A stretch of DNA of 58,275 nt from an uncultured archaeon (GCA_964373695.1 CAYJVT010000004.1:1-58275), one strand, 5' to 3'; shown: positions 6,436 to 45,718, counted from the first letter of the stretch. Notes: generated from the sequence alone by a model not told the origin. A program made the numbers and translations.

Positions 6436-7362
6436 ATGCTCCTTGCCCTCGTGCTTCTCGCCGCAGGCTTCATTGTCCTGCTGAAGGCAAGCGACTACAC
6501 CGTGAGGAACTCGATATCACTCTCAAGGCAGAGCGGCATAAGCGAAATCATAATAGGGTTCGTCTTCGTAGCGATAGGAACTTCGATGCCCGAATTATCC
6601 ATAGCCATAATCTCGTCGCTTCACGGGAACGGCTTGCTGAGCTTCGGCAATCTCATAGGAGCCAATGTGATGCTGCTTACTCTCGTATTCGGCGTGATGG
6701 CGCTCATCGGCTTCAAGATACAGAAGGAGCGCCTCATGGAGATAAACCAGGCTGTAATCTTTGCCGCAATAATTGCAGTGTTCCTCATATACCTGATGAA
6801 GGTGGACATTGCATTCGGAATCTTTTCCATAATCCTGTTCTATGCGTTCCTGAAGAACATATACAGCGAGGAAAAGAAAATTGAAAGGAAAAGGCCCTCG
6901 AGAAACAGGAAAAAGACGGCAAAAATTCTCCTATACCTTCTTGCATCGATAGCCCTTGTCGTGGTCGGCGCCGAGATGATAACAAAGTCCGCCACGGAAA
7001 TCTCAGCCCTGCTTGGTCTTGGCAACACAGTGATAGGCGCAACCCTTCTTGCGCTGGGAACCACGATACCCGAATTCAGCGTCAACATAATGGCGCTGAG
7101 AAGGAAGGACATAAACCTGGCGATAGGCGACACCATCGGAAGCATAGTCACCAACATAACCCTGATACTTGGCGTAGCGGCCATAATAAACCCCATATCC
7201 ATAGACGCGTCCGGCAGGCTCGCCCTGGTGACGATGCTCATTGCGAGCGGCATCTTCCTCTACTTTGCGACGCACCTCAAGCTGAGAAAGGAGCAAGGGA
7301 TAATACTCATCGCCTCATACGCCATTTTCCTTTACCTCATGCTCTCCGGAACCGTGATATAA
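6436..7362 (+). CDS. Ca2+/cation antiporter (CaCA / NCX_Mj-like)
   Basis: About 10 TM segments with two alpha-repeat signatures, GTSMPELSIAIISS and GTTIPEFSVNIMA. Confidence 0.85.
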   Translation: MLLALVLLAAGFIVLLKASDYTVRNSISLSRQSGISEIIIGFVFVAIGTSMPELSIAIISSLHGNGLLSFGNLIGANVMLLTLVFGVMALIGFKIQKERLMEINQAVIFAAIIAVFLIYLMKVDIAFGIFSIILFYAFLKNIYSEEKKIERKRPSRNRKKTAKILLYLLASIALVVVGAEMITKSATEISALLGLGNTVIGATLLALGTTIPEFSVNIMALRRKDINLAIGDTIGSIVTNITLILGVAAIINPISIDASGRLALVTMLIASGIFLYFATHLKLRKEQGIILIASYAIFLYLMLSGTVI

Positions 7363-7372
7363 TCACGCAATT

Positions 7373-7468
7373 TATAGTGAAACAAGCAAATAAACAGGAT
7401 ATGATTTGCTTGTTTCACATATAGTGCCAGAGAAAAGTATATATTGAATCTTTTCTTTGAGCACTATA
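7373..7468 (+). mobile_element. MITE-like double-hairpin element, divergent copy 1 (intergenic)
   Basis: tatagtgaaacaagc...tgcttgtttcacatatagtgcc...gagcactata. All three arm segments are identical to copies 2 and 3, the loop sequences differ, and the element is flanked by TA/TA. Confidence 0.7.
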
Positions 7469-7471
7469 AAT
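7464..7471 (+). promoter_or_regulatory. candidate TATA box for tRNA-Cys, formed by the MITE terminus
   Basis: ctataaat ends 25 nt upstream of the tRNA 5' end (7496), the usual archaeal TATA-to-TSS spacing. Confidence 0.35.
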
Positions 7472-7495
7472 GTATTACAAACAATTTCTAACCAT

Positions 7496-7665
7496 GCTGG
7501 CGTGACAGAACGGCCATCTGCAAACGGAAGATGCAGACCGCAGATGTGACCGCCTGCAGACAAAGCCCTTTTCTTAAAAGAAAATGGCTTTGTATGTCCC
7601 AAAAGAAATTTTAGGGATATTATTGCAGCAAGCGGTATAACCCGGTTCAACTCCGGGCGCCAGCT
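7496..7665 (+). tRNA. tRNA-Cys(GCA) with a 71-nt canonical intron and a putative ~27-nt D-arm intron
   Basis: - Acceptor GCTGGCG(7496-7502)/CGCCAGC(7658-7664).
- T-arm CCCGG-TTCAACT-CCGGG (7641-7657).
- Anticodon stem ACCGC(7549-7553)/GCGGT(7632-7636).
- Loop CTGCAGA with anticodon GCA at 7556-7558.
- D-loop AACGGCCA.
- Removing 7560-7630 and 7517-7543 gives a 72-nt cloverleaf. Confidence 0.75.
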
Positions 7666-7669
7666 CTCG

Positions 7670-7981
7670 ATGAGGACGATAAAAGTAAGAGTAATCCCCA
7701 ACGCAAAAAGGAGTGGGATATAGTGCTCCAATGAAATAAAAAGGATATTATATCATTGGGCACTATATGTGAAACAAGCTATAATGTCGGTATTATTTTC
7801 TTGTTTCACTATAAAGGAAGAACCCGGCATGCTGAAAGTCAGGCTGAAGGCGAAGCCGGAAGACGGCAAGGCGAATGCCGAGCTGATAAGAGTCCTTTCG
7901 GCACATTTCGGCGCGGGAAAAAACGGCGTGAGGATTCTGAAAGGGCTGAAGTCGCGCGATAAAACAGTTCTGATAGAGTAA
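7670..7981 (+). pseudogene. DUF167 (YggU-like) gene interrupted by a MITE insertion
   Basis: 7670-7720 encodes MRTIKVRVIPNAKRSGI. 7814-7981 encodes KEEPGMLKVRLKAKPEDGKANAELIRVLSAHFG...SRDKTVLIE in the same frame. Joined, they match the DUF167 pattern (v.v.P.Ak...i....lkv...a.P.dGkAN..li..L). The intervening 93 nt starts with an in-frame TAG. Confidence 0.75.
7719..7813 (-). mobile_element. MITE-like double-hairpin element, copy 2 (inside DUF167 gene)
   Basis: 95 nt are the exact reverse complement of 45276-45370, checked base by base. It has TAGTG/CACTA termini and TA on both sides. Confidence 0.8.
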
Positions 7982-16146: not shown

Positions 16147-17523
16147 ATGAGACTTTTCAACACCCTCACAAGACAGAAGGACGAGCTTGCGCCGCATGGC
16201 GACGTGAGAATGTATTTCTGCGGCCCCACGGTATACGATTTTGCCCACATAGGAAATTTCAGGTCCTATCTGGTTGCGGAGCTCACAAGGCGGTATCTTG
16301 AATACAAGGGATACGGCGTCAGGCTTGTCATGAACATAACCGATGTTGACGACAAGACGATAAAAGGTTCAAGGAAGGAAGGAATGCCCCTGAAGGAATT
16401 CACGAAAAAGTACGAGGACTATTTCTTTGAGGACCTCGACTCGCTCCGCATAAAGCTCGCATCAGCCTATCCAAGGGCGACGGAGCATATAGACGACATG
16501 GTCGGCCTGATAAGGAATCTCCTGGGGAAGGGAATCGCGTACAGAGGGGAGGACGGCTCCATATATTTTGACATAACGAAGTTCAAGGATTACGGGAATC
16601 TCTCCAGAGTCGACCTGTCGGGCCTGAAGGCCGGCGCCCGTGTCAACCAGGACAATTACGAAAAGGACGACGCGAAGGATTTCGCGCTGTGGAAGGCGTG
16701 GAGCGAGGAAGACGGCGACGTCTACTGGGACACCGAATTGGGCAGAGGAAGGCCTGGCTGGCACATAGAGTGCAGCGCCATGTCCATGAAGCACCTTGAC
16801 GGCATAGACATCCACGGAGGCGGCATAGACCTCATGTTTCCCCACCATGAGAACGAGATAGCGCAAAGCGAGGCTTCCACAGGCAAGAAATTCGCCGACA
16901 TATGGCTCCACTGCGAGCACCTGCTTGTCGACGGAAGGAAGATGTCGAAGAGCCTCGGGAACTTCTACACCATCAGAGATGTCGCGGAGAAAGGATTCAA
17001 TCCGCTGGCATTCCGATACCTTTGCATGTCGACCAACTACAGAAGCCAAATCAATTTTACATTCCAGTCGCTTGAGGACGCGTGGAACACCGTCCAGAGC
17101 ATAAACAACTTCATCTTCCGCCTTAGGAGCGAGAACGACGACAAGGAGAACATGACGATAATGGATGCCGTGGAGAAGGCCAGAAATGGGTTCGAGGCTC
17201 ATATGGATGACGACCTTGACGTCCAGCACGCCCTGGCAGATGTTTTCGAGCTCATGCGCATCGTCAACAAGGAGATAGACGAGGGCAGAGCAGGCTCGCT
17301 TGAAGAAGCTCTTGAGTTCATCCTCTCGGTAAACGACATATTCGACATCCTGACGGAAACGGAAACAAATCTCACCGAAGAGGAGAAAACGATGATAGAG
17401 GAACGCGAGAAGGCGCGAAAGCAGAAGGATTTCAGGAAGGCCGACAAGATAAGGAAAGAACTTGCCGAGAAAGGAATTAGCATAGAGGACTCGCCTCACG
17501 GCCCGAGGTGGAAGAGGATTTAA
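16147..17523 (+). CDS. cysS: cysteinyl-tRNA synthetase
   Basis: Class-I motifs HIGN (FAHIGNFRSY) and KMSKS, and CGPTVYD at the N-terminus. Confidence 0.95.
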   Translation: MRLFNTLTRQKDELAPHGDVRMYFCGPTVYDFAHIGNFRSYLVAELTRRYLEYKGYGVRLVMNITDVDDKTIKGSRKEGMPLKEFTKKYEDYFFEDLDSLRIKLASAYPRATEHIDDMVGLIRNLLGKGIAYRGEDGSIYFDITKFKDYGNLSRVDLSGLKAGARVNQDNYEKDDAKDFALWKAWSEEDGDVYWDTELGRGRPGWHIECSAMSMKHLDGIDIHGGGIDLMFPHHENEIAQSEASTGKKFADIWLHCEHLLVDGRKMSKSLGNFYTIRDVAEKGFNPLAFRYLCMSTNYRSQINFTFQSLEDAWNTVQSINNFIFRLRSENDDKENMTIMDAVEKARNGFEAHMDDDLDVQHALADVFELMRIVNKEIDEGRAGSLEEALEFILSVNDIFDILTETETNLTEEEKTMIEEREKARKQKDFRKADKIRKELAEKGISIEDSPHGPRWKRI

Positions 17524-31285: not shown

Positions 31286-34174
31286 ATGTTCGGCTCGCTC
31301 AGGAAGAAGCTGCACGAAGCTGTGAAGAAGGTATCGAAGGCCGTTTCTGAAGACAGGCCCGTCCAAGAGAAAGATGTTCCTGACATCACAAAAGAGCAGC
31401 CCTTGCAAAAGGAAATACACGGGATGGAGGAAAGGGCAAAGGACATCCTCCTTGACTTTGAAAAACTCCAGGAGAAGGAAGTCATTCTTCCAAAAGAACC
31501 TTCTCCAACTCCGCTCGAAGAGATGGAGGAAAAGGAAGACAAAATACTGATGGAAAAGGAAAAGCTTGACGCGATGACCCAGAAGAATACCCGTAAGCCG
31601 GAAACAAGGACTGCCCCGCAAAAAGAATCCTTTATTCCAGAGATGACAGACTTCGAGAAGCACGAGCTCATGGCCGAAGAGGGCAAGAAGAGCCTTCTCG
31701 GAGGCCTCATGAAGAAGGTCAGTGAGAAGCGCCTCGAGGAAAAGGACGTGGAGAAGGTGGCAAAGGAGCTCCACATGACGCTCCTTGAGAACGACGTTTC
31801 CATGGAGACGGCCGACAAGATATCGGATGACCTGAAGAAGGAGCTTGCCGGAAAGAGCGTTCCGAGGGGGAAGATAGAAGACACCATAAAGGACGCCCTC
31901 AGAAACTCCATGCTAGACGTCCTGAGGCAGGAAAAGCCTGACATAATGAGGCTTGTCAGAGAAAAGAGAGGCGAGCCGTTCGTTATCGTGTTCCTAGGAT
32001 TCAACGGCACTGGCAAATGCGTTTCGGGCGATACACTTATTCCTCTAGCCAGTGGTGCAATTGCATCGATAAAAGACCTTTATGAAAGAGCCAGACTAAA
32101 TGGCGAGTCTGTTGTAGAAGATGGGTATGTAGTTAATAACCCGTCACTGGAGGTTTTTTCAACTAATCCGTATAATCTTAAAGTTGAACGAGTTAAGGCA
32201 CAAAATATATGGAAGCTTAAAAAAAATAAAGTACTTCATGTCTGCTTAAACAATGGACAGGATATAAAAGTAACTCCGGAACATCCCTTCTTCGTTCTCA
32301 AATCCGGCAGTATCTCACAGAAACGCGCTGATGAAATTACCAGAGAAGATTATGTAATGGTGCCGAGAGTTGTAATGCCTGAAAATAAGCCTTTATCCAA
32401 GATGGAACTATTAGACATGATAAGCAATAGAAAATTATTCGTGGTTTCCGAAGTTTTGGTTAACGATGCCTACGATATAATGACAGAGATTTTCGGCTCT
32501 TTGGAAAAAGCTTTCCATGAATTGTCCGAAGAAACCGACTGGATGACATTCAGATATTTCCGGAAGAACAGAAAAATACTCCCGTCGACTATAATCTTAA
32601 AGCTTGCAAAAATTAACGACAAATTCGCTGAAAATATTGAGAATGAAAAATTCAGCATCAAATTCGATAGAAGTAAGCCAATATTGATGCCAGATTTTAA
32701 TCATGATTTTTATCAATGGCTTGGACTTTTTTATGCTGAAGGGCATATGGACAGGAATTATGTTGAATTTACAAACTCAGAAGATTGGCTATTAGAAATA
32801 TTCTCCAATCTTACGAGAAATATTTTCGGCGTAGATAACATTCTTATAAAACCTGATTTACGCAATTTAACCGTAAAGAAATCGCTGATAGCCAATAGAA
32901 CTTTGTGCTATTTTGTTGAGAAGGCATTGGGCGTACCTCGCTACAATAAAAGCTCGTCAATGGCGCTTCCCGAATGGTTGATGTGCGATTCTGATGATCT
33001 TATAGCATCATTTTTGAGGTCTTATTGGGAGGGAGACGGCTCTGTAGAATTGAAGCACAGGTCTCTTGAAGCATCAACTGCAAGCGAAAAATTTGCCCGG
33101 CAACATTCTCTATTACTTTTACGGTTTGGTATTATATCTTCATTTTCCAAGAAGATTATAAACAATAAAAACTACTATAGAATTTATATAGTTGGCAAAG
33201 GGAAACTAAAATCTTTCAATGAAAAAATAGGTTTTCTTGGAGCTATGAAGCGTCAAAGGCTTGAAAATCTTATATTGATGAATTCTCAATTTGAGAAAAC
33301 CGAGCTTATTCCAATGCAGTCTGAATACCTGAGAAATCTTCGGCTGTCCGCTGGTATGCTTCAGCAGGATTTAGCTAGTTCGTTGAATATAGGACCAAGC
33401 CTTCTCAGCCAATATGAGCTCGAATCTTATCAAGTTTCAATTCCCGTAGAAAAGATAGCTAATCTGGCACTGAAATTTTCCTCGCCATTTCTGGAAACAC
33501 TGGCAAATGCAGACGTCAGATGGATAAAGGTAAGAAATGTCGAAGAAGTCTTAGATTCTGAAGAGTGGGTATACGATTTTACAATACCGGTTTACCATAA
33601 TTTTGTTGCCAATAATTTCATTATTCATAATACGACAAACCTCTCAAAGATGGCAAGCATGATGAAGGAATACAGGCCTGTCCTGGCTGCAGCCGACACT
33701 TTCCGCGCGGCAAGCATAGAGCAGCTGGAGGAGCATGGCAGGCGACTCGGAATGAAGGTGGTGAAGCACACTTACGGCTCGGACTCGGCATCAGTCATAT
33801 TCGACGCCAAGAAGCACGCGATGGCATCCGGAAGCAGGCTGGTGCTTGCAGACACGGCAGGCAGGAGCCACGCCAACGTGAACCTGATGGACGAACTGAA
33901 GAAGATATGCAGGGTCAACAAGCCTGACATGAAGATACTGGTCCTGGACTCCCTGACAGGCAACGACATATACGACCAGGTGAAACTGTTCAATGATGCA
34001 GTAGGCATAGACGGAATAATCCTTTCGAAGGCCGACGTCTACGACAAGGGCGGCGCGGCGCTGTCGGCCGCGCACACTTCAAAAAAGCCGATACTATACC
34101 TCGGGACCGGCCAGAACTACGGCGACCTGAAGGAATTTGACCCGGAAGAAATCGTCAAAAACCTGCTTGAATAA
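31286..34174 (+). CDS. ftsY: signal recognition particle receptor FtsY, containing an intein
   Basis: A charged A-domain is followed by an NG domain. The P-loop is split as GFNGTGK | intein | TTNLSKMA. Downstream motifs are AADTFRAA, DTAGR and SKAD..KGG. Confidence 0.9.
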   Translation: MFGSLRKKLHEAVKKVSKAVSEDRPVQEKDVPDITKEQPLQKEIHGMEERAKDILLDFEKLQEKEVILPKEPSPTPLEEMEEKEDKILMEKEKLDAMTQKNTRKPETRTAPQKESFIPEMTDFEKHELMAEEGKKSLLGGLMKKVSEKRLEEKDVEKVAKELHMTLLENDVSMETADKISDDLKKELAGKSVPRGKIEDTIKDALRNSMLDVLRQEKPDIMRLVREKRGEPFVIVFLGFNGTGKCVSGDTLIPLASGAIASIKDLYERARLNGESVVEDGYVVNNPSLEVFSTNPYNLKVERVKAQNIWKLKKNKVLHVCLNNGQDIKVTPEHPFFVLKSGSISQKRADEITREDYVMVPRVVMPENKPLSKMELLDMISNRKLFVVSEVLVNDAYDIMTEIFGSLEKAFHELSEETDWMTFRYFRKNRKILPSTIILKLAKINDKFAENIENEKFSIKFDRSKPILMPDFNHDFYQWLGLFYAEGHMDRNYVEFTNSEDWLLEIFSNLTRNIFGVDNILIKPDLRNLTVKKSLIANRTLCYFVEKALGVPRYNKSSSMALPEWLMCDSDDLIASFLRSYWEGDGSVELKHRSLEASTASEKFARQHSLLLLRFGIISSFSKKIINNKNYYRIYIVGKGKLKSFNEKIGFLGAMKRQRLENLILMNSQFEKTELIPMQSEYLRNLRLSAGMLQQDLASSLNIGPSLLSQYELESYQVSIPVEKIANLALKFSSPFLETLANADVRWIKVRNVEEVLDSEEWVYDFTIPVYHNFVANNFIIHNTTNLSKMASMMKEYRPVLAAADTFRAASIEQLEEHGRRLGMKVVKHTYGSDSASVIFDAKKHAMASGSRLVLADTAGRSHANVNLMDELKKICRVNKPDMKILVLDSLTGNDIYDQVKLFNDAVGIDGIILSKADVYDKGGAALSAAHTSKKPILYLGTGQNYGDLKEFDPEEIVKNLLE
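32018..33631 (+). mobile_element. 538-aa intein with LAGLIDADG homing-endonuclease and HTH domains in the FtsY P-loop
   Basis: It begins CVSGDTLIPL (block A), has TPEH (block B), then LGLFYAEGHM and LRSYWEGDGS (LAGLIDADG x2). An XRE-like HTH follows (LRLSAGMLQQDLASSLNIGPSLLSQYE). It ends VYDF...FIIHN followed by Thr+1. The DNA is visibly more AT-rich than the exteins. Confidence 0.85.
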
Positions 34175-44650: not shown

Positions 44651-45718
44651 TTCCGTATCTGCGCTAAAATAATCCCTTATTCCAAGATGTTCCGTAAGCC
44701 ATGAAAAATAACCTTCAGCCGTATGTTGCAGTTCCTGTTCTCCCAGCTGCCCGAATCTTTTTTTCAGTACCCACAACACTTGAGCATCCATAGTCGGCTT
44801 CTTCAGGGCCTTCCTGTACAATCTAAGAGCCCATTCCGGCGACTCGTAAGCGCCCAGACAAAATTCCCCATAAGCCATGTATGAATCCGCTATGCCGGGC
44901 ATCTTTCTTACAAGCATCTTGTAATGTTTTTCGGCCGCCTCAAAAAATTCCGGGCGCCCGGAATCAAGCCACATATTGAAGTATGTATTGCCTATCGTCG
45001 GCAAAACAAGATAATTATTGGGGTCAATCTCAAGAGCCAATTTGAGCTTTTCCAGAGCTTCATCATATCTGCGATGAATAATACCCAGATCCTCTCCGCT
45101 GTCGTGCATGCAGAAAGATACGAATTCGATGAAATTCATCGAAGTCTCGCAAAGCCACAAACTCTTTTCATATTTTCTTACATCTCCGGGCCTCAGTGCA
45201 TCCGCAACGTACAGCGTTCCATCGTGTGAAAACGACGGAAAAGGATGAATGCCATATCTTTCCACTTCTCCCATATATAGTGAAACAAGAAAATAATACC
45301 GACATTATAGCTTGTTTCACATATAGTGCCCAATGATATAATATCCTTTTTATTTCATTGGAGCACTATACCCACTTGGATTCTTCACCACTATCATACC
45401 TGCATTTATACCGACTTCGTGCAGGGCTCTGTGAAGCAAAATGTTAATTTCAATGCAGTGCCCTCTTCTGTCCCTCCACGCTTCTTCTGCTGTCCGGATT
45501 CCACCAAAAGCATGGTTGTAATCATAATCGAGTAAACGGCCTACGGTGTCTGCTACGTATTCGGCCTTGTGAAGTCCTTTGCGCCTGGTTTTTACATATC
45601 CATACAATTCTTCCCGTGATTCATCGCTCATTGTGAAAGGGTTGTACTGTTCTGCAAGTTTCCTGTGCCTTCTTGTAAGTCTTACCCTGCCGTTCACTGC
45701 GCTCCGATCGTACATCAT
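44642..45718 (-). pseudogene. transglutaminase-like cysteine protease / TPR-like protein gene split by a MITE
   Basis: The upstream ORF (45350..45718) carries the Cys motif RRGHCIEINILLHRALHEVGINA and stops inside the element. The downstream ORF (44642..45274) is in the same frame and starts at the element edge (GIHPFPSFSHDGTLYVADA, candidate His/Asp), followed by helical TPR-like repeats. Confidence 0.7.
45276..45370 (+). mobile_element. MITE-like double-hairpin element, copy 3 (inside transglutaminase-like gene)
   Basis: Exact reverse complement of 7719-7813, flanked by TA/TA. Net insertion is 93 nt. Confidence 0.8.

Follow-up and report, generated by a model that had tools for sequence, protein, structure and literature searches.

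Positions 7496-7665 on the plus strand of the window (the whole 58,275-nt stretch of DNA that was analysed) very probably hold a working tRNA-Cys(GCA) gene of an archaeon of the Aenigmarchaeota (DPANN). The gene consists of three exons, at 7496-7515, 7544-7559 and 7631-7665, separated by two introns that are presumably spliced by proteins (BHB type). Its parts, together with the synthetase gene downstream, are the following:

7496-7665, plus strand: whole tRNA-Cys(GCA) gene, 170 nt, ending with discriminator T7665 (U73); CCA is not encoded
7496-7515, plus strand: exon 1 (positions 1-21), with the acceptor 5' strand, U8 G9, D-stem ACAG and D-loop AACGGCC
7511-7544, plus strand: BHB-like motif of the D intron, seen in the unconstrained MFE and in local folds
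7516-7543, plus strand: D-arm intron, 28 nt, at position 21/22, ATCTGCAAACGGAAGATGCAGACCGCAG; removal of 7517-7544 yields the identical product
7544-7559, plus strand: exon 2, with ATGT (22-25), G26, anticodon stem ACCGC and CTGCAG (32-37), anticodon GCA at 7556-7558
7554-7557, plus strand: 5' strand of helix H of the anticodon intron, CTGC (32-35), whose partner is GCAG 7625-7628
7560-7630, plus strand: anticodon-loop intron, 71 nt, at the canonical position 37/38, with hairpins 7560-7593 and 7594-7620 followed by the H 3' strand GCAG 7625-28
7631-7665, plus strand: exon 3, with A38, GCGGT, variable loop ATAA, T-arm, acceptor 3' strand and U73
16147-17523, plus strand: cysteinyl-tRNA synthetase (Pfam tRNA-synt_1e 9e-108, CysS_C, DALR_2)

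Read from 7496 to 7665, the gene runs GCTGGCG TG ACAG AACGGCC, then the D intron ATCTGCAAACGGAAGATGCAGACCGCAG, then ATGT G ACCGC CTGCAG, then the 71 nt of the second intron, and finally A GCGGT ATAA CCCGG TTCAACT CCGGG CGCCAGC T. An earlier note on this DNA had picked out the acceptor strands GCTGGCG (7496-7502) and CGCCAGC (7658-7664), the T-arm CCCGG-TTCAACT-CCGGG (7641-7657), the anticodon stem ACCGC (7549-7553) / GCGGT (7632-7636) and an anticodon loop made of CTGCAG (7554-7559) plus A7631, and all of them were found in place. Since the exons are colinear within 170 nt, a split or permuted arrangement is excluded. The tRNA-Cys identity set, that is, the GCA at 7556-58, the T7665 that follows the acceptor and the G13.A22 mismatch to which the same note had drawn attention, was constant across the eight homologs compared. 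A GCA anticodon and a U73 discriminator are established determinants for CysRS, and the CysRS gene of the window provides a context in which the organism would charge tRNA-Cys directly.

The protein genes of the window are archaeal and include those for eIF-6, prefoldin, proteasome alpha, SBDS, SRP54, an intein-containing FtsY and the CysRS. The best named relative of the adjoining RpiB belongs to Candidatus Aenigmarchaeota (78% identity), and a comparison of the tRNA 3' end with GTDB species genomes returned MAGs of Aenigmatarchaeota and Woesearchaeota, along with unrelated tRNA-Thr genes of bacteria. Based on these proteins, on the RpiB relative and on the GTDB matches, we assigned the window to an Aenigmarchaeota (DPANN) archaeon. 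The FtsY/SRP-receptor gene lies at 31286-34174, and its intein carries a LAGLIDADG homing endonuclease domain.

MITE copies, TATA box and the DUF167 gene

The tRNA gene is flanked by mobile elements, one of which reaches into its putative promoter while the other lies within the next gene:

7375-7466, plus strand: left MITE, 92 nt, two hairpin modules, ends TAGTG...CACTA, TA duplication at 7373-74 and 7467-68
7465-7471, plus strand: TATA box TATAAAT, 24 nt upstream of the tRNA 5' end, in part MITE end and TA duplication and in part ancestral
7670-7981, plus strand: DUF167/YggU gene, starting 4 nt past the tRNA and interrupted by the right MITE
7721-7811, minus strand: right MITE, 91 nt, inverted, inside the DUF167 ORF, TA duplication at 7719-20 and 7812-13
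45278-45368, plus strand: third MITE copy, 91/91 identical to the right copy and flanked by TA

The distances of 27 and 53 nt between the MITEs and the tRNA given by the earlier note hold if the TA duplications (7467-68 and 7719-20) are taken as the starting points. The two inverted flanking copies that it described as bracketing the tRNA are likewise real, but they do not form a unit. Homologous locus L014 carries only the left MITE and L036 neither of the two, while a copy identical to the right one lies 37 kb away; the insertions were therefore independent. A composite element made of two MITEs around the tRNA was also rejected on the grounds that the two copies are about 83% identical over the first module and differ in the second. 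The three window copies are each flanked by TA, and L036, whose tRNA-Cys differs by one base from that of L014, is empty at both insertion sites. In L014 a longer relative of the left MITE occupies the same TA.

Like TA-targeting MITEs, the window copies are about 91-92 nt long and non-coding, have inverted ends (TAGTG...CACTA), are bordered by a TA duplication, occur several times and have empty sites in relatives. They differ from them in having two consecutive hairpin modules whose stems vary in sequence between copies yet remain complementary. We take these elements to resemble the Stowaway / Tc1-mariner / IS630-derived type; no autonomous partner of the family was identified. The 91/91 pair points to a transposition that was probably recent.

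The end of the left MITE was thought to supply a TATA-like box, and the empty site of L036 bears this out: the element inserted in the TA of an ancestral TTTAAAT and recreated a TATAAAT at the same distance from the tRNA. The left copy thus appears to be a case of a MITE landing in, and rebuilding, the predicted TATA box of an archaeal tRNA gene.

Concerning the right copy, removal of the MITE and one TA from the DUF167 ORF restores a 72-aa product that matches DUF167 positions 3-76/76 with 84.2 bits, and the ORF is uninterrupted at this site in L036 and L014. The close spacing between tRNA and DUF167 is kept in L036, L014 and L038. The arrangement suggests a possible co-transcription of the two genes, in which 3' processing of the tRNA would leave a near-leaderless mRNA. 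A member of the same MITE family was found at another TA in the DUF167 ORF of L038 (4594-4686; GCA_016187365.1) and of L039. Because these insertions use different TA sites in related genomes, the small gene was struck twice, independently. Two independent short-read assemblies of the population (L001 and L002, Logan contigs ERR3478686 and ERR4904390) break just before the right MITE, so that the tRNA locus is missing from them, which illustrates how a tRNA gene can drop out of MAGs.

Homologous alleles and recognition of the gene

We compared the locus with homologous tRNA-Cys alleles with and without introns. Intron sizes, and identities of the spliced or intron-less tRNA to the 71-nt spliced product of the window (71-mer), were as follows:

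Window: D intron 28 nt, anticodon intron 71 nt
L014: both introns (17 and 95 nt), 71/71
L036: both introns (17 and 95 nt), 70/71
L012: both introns (27 and 43 nt), 67/71
L025/L029: both introns (27 and 43 nt), 67/71
L005: no introns, 68/71
L003: no introns, 62/71
L038/L039: no introns, 59/71

ARAGORN identified every compared (spliced) allele as tRNA-Cys(GCA). L005, from an Aenigmatarchaeota MAG, reads GCTGGCGTGACAGAACGGCCATGTGACCGCCTGCAGAGCGGTTCAACCCGGTTCGACTCCGGGCGCCAGCT and scores 49.4 bits with the Rfam tRNA model (gathering score 29); L003, also from an Aenigmatarchaeota MAG, scores 54.1 bits. L038/L039 (GCA_016187365.1) shares with the window the gene order Na/Ca exchanger (Na_Ca_ex) - tRNA - DUF167 - RpiB. 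Other RpiB homologs (L041-L045, 65-71% identity) were discarded, as they were neither syntenic nor accompanied by tRNA-Cys. Among the metagenome matches to an 18-mer, 11 of 14 were due to chance and lay in unrelated DNA.

The intron-less L005, L003 and L038 set the end of exon 1. These homologs continue directly from the D-loop into the D-stem as GGCC-ATGT or GGTC-ATGT (GGCC-ATGT in L038/L039), and the D insertion, which they lack, is found at the same site in L014/L036, L012 and L025/L029. The two excisions proposed earlier, 71 nt at 37/38 plus an intron in the D-arm, are thus backed by the comparison. Two lengths had to be corrected: with intron-less homologs that read ...AACGGCC-ATGTG..., the D-arm insertion measures 28 nt instead of 27, and the mature tRNA 71 nt instead of 72. 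An allele set of this kind (an intron-less syntenic gene, an intron-less near-identical one and four other intron-bearing ones) fixes the splice junctions without the need for RNA data.

Both introns occupy the same positions in four other alleles: L014 (MAG), L036, L012 and L025/L029. In spite of exons that are identical between the window and L014 (71/71), the introns differ in length and are only 57-58% identical over the alignment, and the adjoining RpiB is about 81% identical in the L014/L036 lineage (P0002, on the L036 contig). This argues for selection on the spliced product and against a decaying gene. The anticodon stem covaries among the alleles as ACCGC/GCGGT, CCCGC/GCGGG and CUCGC/GCGAG. 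Conserved exons with variable introns (L014) are therefore accompanied by existing intron-less orthologs (L005, L003 and the syntenic L038), and the comparison shows that intron presence changes faster than the tRNA sequence.

 In L003, L012 and L025 a conserved palindrome, GGAGAAAACCTAGGTTTTCTCC, abuts the tRNA-Cys 5' end, and further upstream L012 and L025 carry tandem AG-rich repeats. On the reverse strand of L038, between the TATA box and the intact tRNA-Cys, lies a 38-nt relic of a tRNA-Cys 5' half (GCTGGGATGGCAGATCGGCTATGCACTCGCCTTCCTTT), a remnant left by an old duplication or by recombination close to the anticodon loop.

Standard tools did not recognize the gene. ARAGORN reported 0 tRNAs in the raw window; run with intron options on the raw locus at the default threshold, as the earlier note had advised, it again found nothing, and it called the doubly spliced 72-mer of that note tRNA-Cys(GCA). 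At an 80% threshold it miscalled the raw locus as Phe and Val, with introns that are not genuine. Rfam detected no tRNA at the gathering score in the raw window, nor any tRNA match, partial ones included, in 7350-7820 at E<=10. Once joined, the exons form a canonical cloverleaf with a sense anticodon, and ARAGORN identified the spliced 71-mer as tRNA-Cys(GCA). Its Rfam tRNA score would be near 49 bits, because its three differences from L005 fall in the variable loop and at T-loop position 57.

We also searched the 58-kb window on both strands for T-arms (a 5-bp stem closed by G53 and a TTCRANN loop) whose next seven bases could pair with a heptamer lying at most 420 nt upstream. Exactly one site, 7496-7664, combined this T-arm with a 7-bp acceptor, and no second tRNA-Cys candidate emerged from the scan. 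The 170-nt transcript folds at -70.4 kcal/mol, against -43.5 +/- 3.6 in dinucleotide shuffles (z = -7.4), and its unconstrained MFE displays the acceptor, D, anticodon and T helices as well as both intron helices. The single site and the z value indicate that the locus is not a chance assembly of parts. The two introns break up the gene and standard finders consequently miss it; ARAGORN or Rfam would score tRNA-Cys as absent from this genome. Inferences on completeness and auxotrophy of DPANN MAGs can go wrong through such missed tRNAs.

Splicing motifs and predicted maturation

In the BHB geometry that we used, four bases of the exon are paired to positions -6 to -3 of the intron, counted from the 3' site, and the bulges are of 3 nt, each being cut after its second base. 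Position 32 is known to pair with intron base -3 (Marck and Grosjean 2003, as cited in PMC4090602), in agreement with this geometry.

The anticodon intron conforms strictly in its 3' half, which comprises the anticodon stem, the bulge CA^A at 7629-31 (the caret marks the cut) and the helix CUGC/GCAG. The pairing of CTGC 7554-57 with GCAG 7625-28, followed by a CAA bulge, was therefore present as described in the earlier note, whose view of the 5' site as relaxed was equally borne out: AG^A 7558-60 adjoins the local hairpin 7560-7593. There is no continuous h' helix, and the motif is of the relaxed hBH type. The anticodon introns of L014 and L012 have an equal layout with unrelated hairpin sequences.

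In the D intron, helix H is formed by CGG 7511-13 and CCG 7538-40, plus an A7510.C7541 apposition that in L014 is replaced by A:U, giving the full 4/4 bp. The bulge is CC^A at 7514-16, the 3' site AG^A at 7542-44 lies in an internal loop adjoining the D-stem, and h' has 6 bp (TCTGCA 7517-22 / TGCAGA 7532-37). This is an HBh' form, and neither motif of the gene is a strict hBHBh'. Nevertheless, cutting as predicted gives precisely the GGCC-AUGU junction of the intron-less genes. Of the two registers in which the homologs permit the cuts to be placed, CC^A...AG^A alone agrees with the BHB geometry. Mechanical enumeration of BHB motifs was unspecific, with dozens of candidates of H>=3/4 per precursor; the boundaries thus rest on the homologs and the motif alone proves nothing.

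The outer two pairs of h' show compensatory changes, being CA/UG in the window, UU/AA in L012 and CU/AG in L025, while L014 has a 3-bp stem with a GCAA loop. Covariation over the four distinct intron-bearing sequences was not significant (160 of 500 shuffles were equally good), and the MAFFT gap placement hides one of the two compensatory h' pairs. A perfect 7-bp helix, CAUCUGC 7515-21 / GCAGAUG 7540-46, spans both D-intron junctions and competes with the BHB-like fold. Every intron-bearing allele has kept it, and for L014 and L012 it is what local folding gives as the MFE; for full-length L014 the BHB-constrained fold lies 3.7 kcal/mol above the MFE. Inspection of both introns by eye revealed no C/D-box motifs. 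Within 7533-7560, GCAGA occurs three times and GACCGC twice, and these repeats raise the notion that the D intron might stem from a local duplication.

In the maturation pathway that we propose, the TATAAAT box at 7465-71 would direct transcription to start some 25 nt further downstream. EndA would recognize the D-arm motif through its 3(+1)-bp helix H, 3-nt bulge and 6-bp hairpin h', and cut it at CC^A (between 7515 and 7516) and AG^A (between 7543 and 7544). In the anticodon motif, which offers the anticodon stem, a 3-nt bulge, the 4-bp CUGC/GCAG helix and a 5' site adjoining a local hairpin, it would cut at AG^A (between 7559 and 7560) and CA^A (between 7630 and 7631). A ligase of the RtcB type would then join the exons, RNase P and RNase Z would trim the ends and CCA would be added. 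The expected product is a 71-nt tRNA with anticodon GCA, U73 and G13.A22, to be charged by the CysRS encoded 8.5 kb away. The sequence comparison and folding establish where exons and introns meet, how they are conserved and that the motifs can form, while the enzymes, the order of the steps and the expression of the tRNA are inferred.

Relaxed motifs need EndA enzymes of broad specificity, and in DPANN the L3-loop alpha4 enzymes go together with more disrupted tRNA genes (PMC5829648). We predict that the EndA of this lineage accepts relaxed BHB motifs. The window itself contains no EndA gene detectable by a Pfam scan of its 30 ORFs or by tblastn/phmmer with M. jannaschii EndA, a query confirmed against PDB 1A79 at 371 bits.

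Alternative readings and relation to known disrupted tRNA genes

Could the locus be a tRNA-Cys gene that has fallen out of use and is decaying as a pseudogene, with two insertions acquired on the way? The rejection by standard finders, a neighbourhood struck by MITEs, the related allele L009 that lacks exon 1 and the imperfection of both BHB motifs would fit such a history. A gene in decay would hardly keep all 71 exon positions in common with L014 at the intron and RpiB divergence noted above, and compensatory changes are seen in exon and intron helices alike. Moreover, four other alleles retain both insertions at the same sites, and the window encodes a CysRS while offering no other tRNA-Cys candidate. 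We consider decay improbable.

It is still harder to accept that splicing removes the 37/38 intron alone and leaves a tRNA whose D-arm is enlarged by the 28-nt insertion, a reading that we regard as very unlikely. The insertion does form a stable hairpin of its own, and a clean 3-nt bulge is missing at its 3' cleavage site. Yet in this fold it pairs with G18 and G19 of the D-loop and, judging from standard tRNA architecture, would block the contact between D-loop and T-loop if retained. It is also absent from a near-identical tRNA (68/71), its length varies (17, 27 or 28 nt) between invariant flanking exon bases, and the cut register compatible with a BHB gives exactly the intron-less junction. 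The boundaries of the earlier note have scarcely any credibility left. Excision of 7517-7543 would give a 72-nt tRNA with the D-loop AACGGCCA, which ARAGORN accepts as tRNA-Cys too; alternatively, CAGA/TCTG would be the D-stem and the insertion would lie near position 26. However, in each of the three intron-less homologs ATGT comes directly after a D-loop of 7 nt (GGCCATGT or GGTCATGT), and the five intron-bearing alleles (four of them distinct in this region) all fit the homolog junction. The 27-nt register lacks BHB geometry. As to the CAGA/TCTG stem, it is ruled out by the intron-less homologs, since it relies on intron bases that they do not have.

A gene with two spliced introns, the reading that we favour, has clear precedents. 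Multi-intron tRNA genes and non-canonical BHB introns were reportedly described in Crenarchaeota/Thermoproteales by Marck and Grosjean in 2003 and by Sugahara and colleagues in 2007 and 2008. The present case adds a well-supported example to a phenomenon already known from archaea and does not constitute a new kind. Multi-intron tRNAs and D-arm introns (at 20/21 and 22/23) are established in archaea (PMC4090602), and together with relaxed BHB motifs and fast intron turnover they are described in Crenarchaeota and some DPANN (PMC4090602, PMC3239211, PMC5829648). With the multi-intron tRNAs of Crenarchaeota/Thermoproteales the window gene shares an intron at 37/38 plus one elsewhere, relaxed hBH/HBh' motifs, fast-varying introns between fixed exons and an intron presence that differs between close genomes (PMC4090602); its lineage, in contrast, is Aenigmarchaeota (DPANN), from groundwater and sediment metagenomes.

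Disrupted tRNA genes have been reported in DPANN as well, where further unidentified ones are expected (PMC5829648), and these have in common with the window gene that they are missed by predictors and have a non-canonical intron and relaxed motifs (PMC3239211, PMC5829648). Their EndA has been typed, the variants being epsilon2 of ARMAN-2, (alpha-beta)2 of Nanoarchaeum and L3-loop alpha4 (PMC3239211, PMC5829648), whereas the window contains no EndA gene. Aenigmarchaeota are not among the genomes surveyed in PMC5829648, and the literature library that we searched contained no paper on tRNA introns in this group. The tRNA-Cys gene described here adds to Aenigmarchaeota a documented two-intron tRNA with a D-arm intron.

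In the split and tri-split tRNAs of Nanoarchaeum equitans and Caldivirga maquilingensis the break points coincide with intron positions (PMC4090602). The three exons of the window gene, in contrast, are contiguous and colinear; a cut at an intron position is seen in L009 (JAGVVX010000064.1, about 330-512). Apart from a clean deletion of 102 nt, the allele has the same sequence as L025. What is lost is the proximal upstream region together with exon 1 and the D intron, and the deletion stops precisely at the 3' splice site of that intron. No exon 1 was found elsewhere on the 6.3-kb contig, nor was there a BHB-forming leader before exon 2. Possible explanations for L009 are a pseudogene, an error of assembly and an intermediate on the way to a split gene.

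Taken with L009, the relatives may form a natural series of tRNA disruption, from the intron-less L038, through alleles with near-identical exons and two introns, gained or lost together (window, L014, L012), to L009, which could be an incipient split. We regard this series as doubtful. If it were true, the Aenigmarchaeota tRNA-Cys would be a tractable case for the origin of BHB introns and split genes, and the MITE traffic at the locus would hint at an involvement of mobile elements.

Another candidate came from Woesearchaeota, where a tRNA-Ser(GCT) gene (L007, 4423-4547) has several insertions relative to an intron-less homolog in L018. ARAGORN miscalls it as a tRNA-Phe with a 41-nt intron, and it appears to be another disrupted DPANN tRNA mishandled by standard tools.
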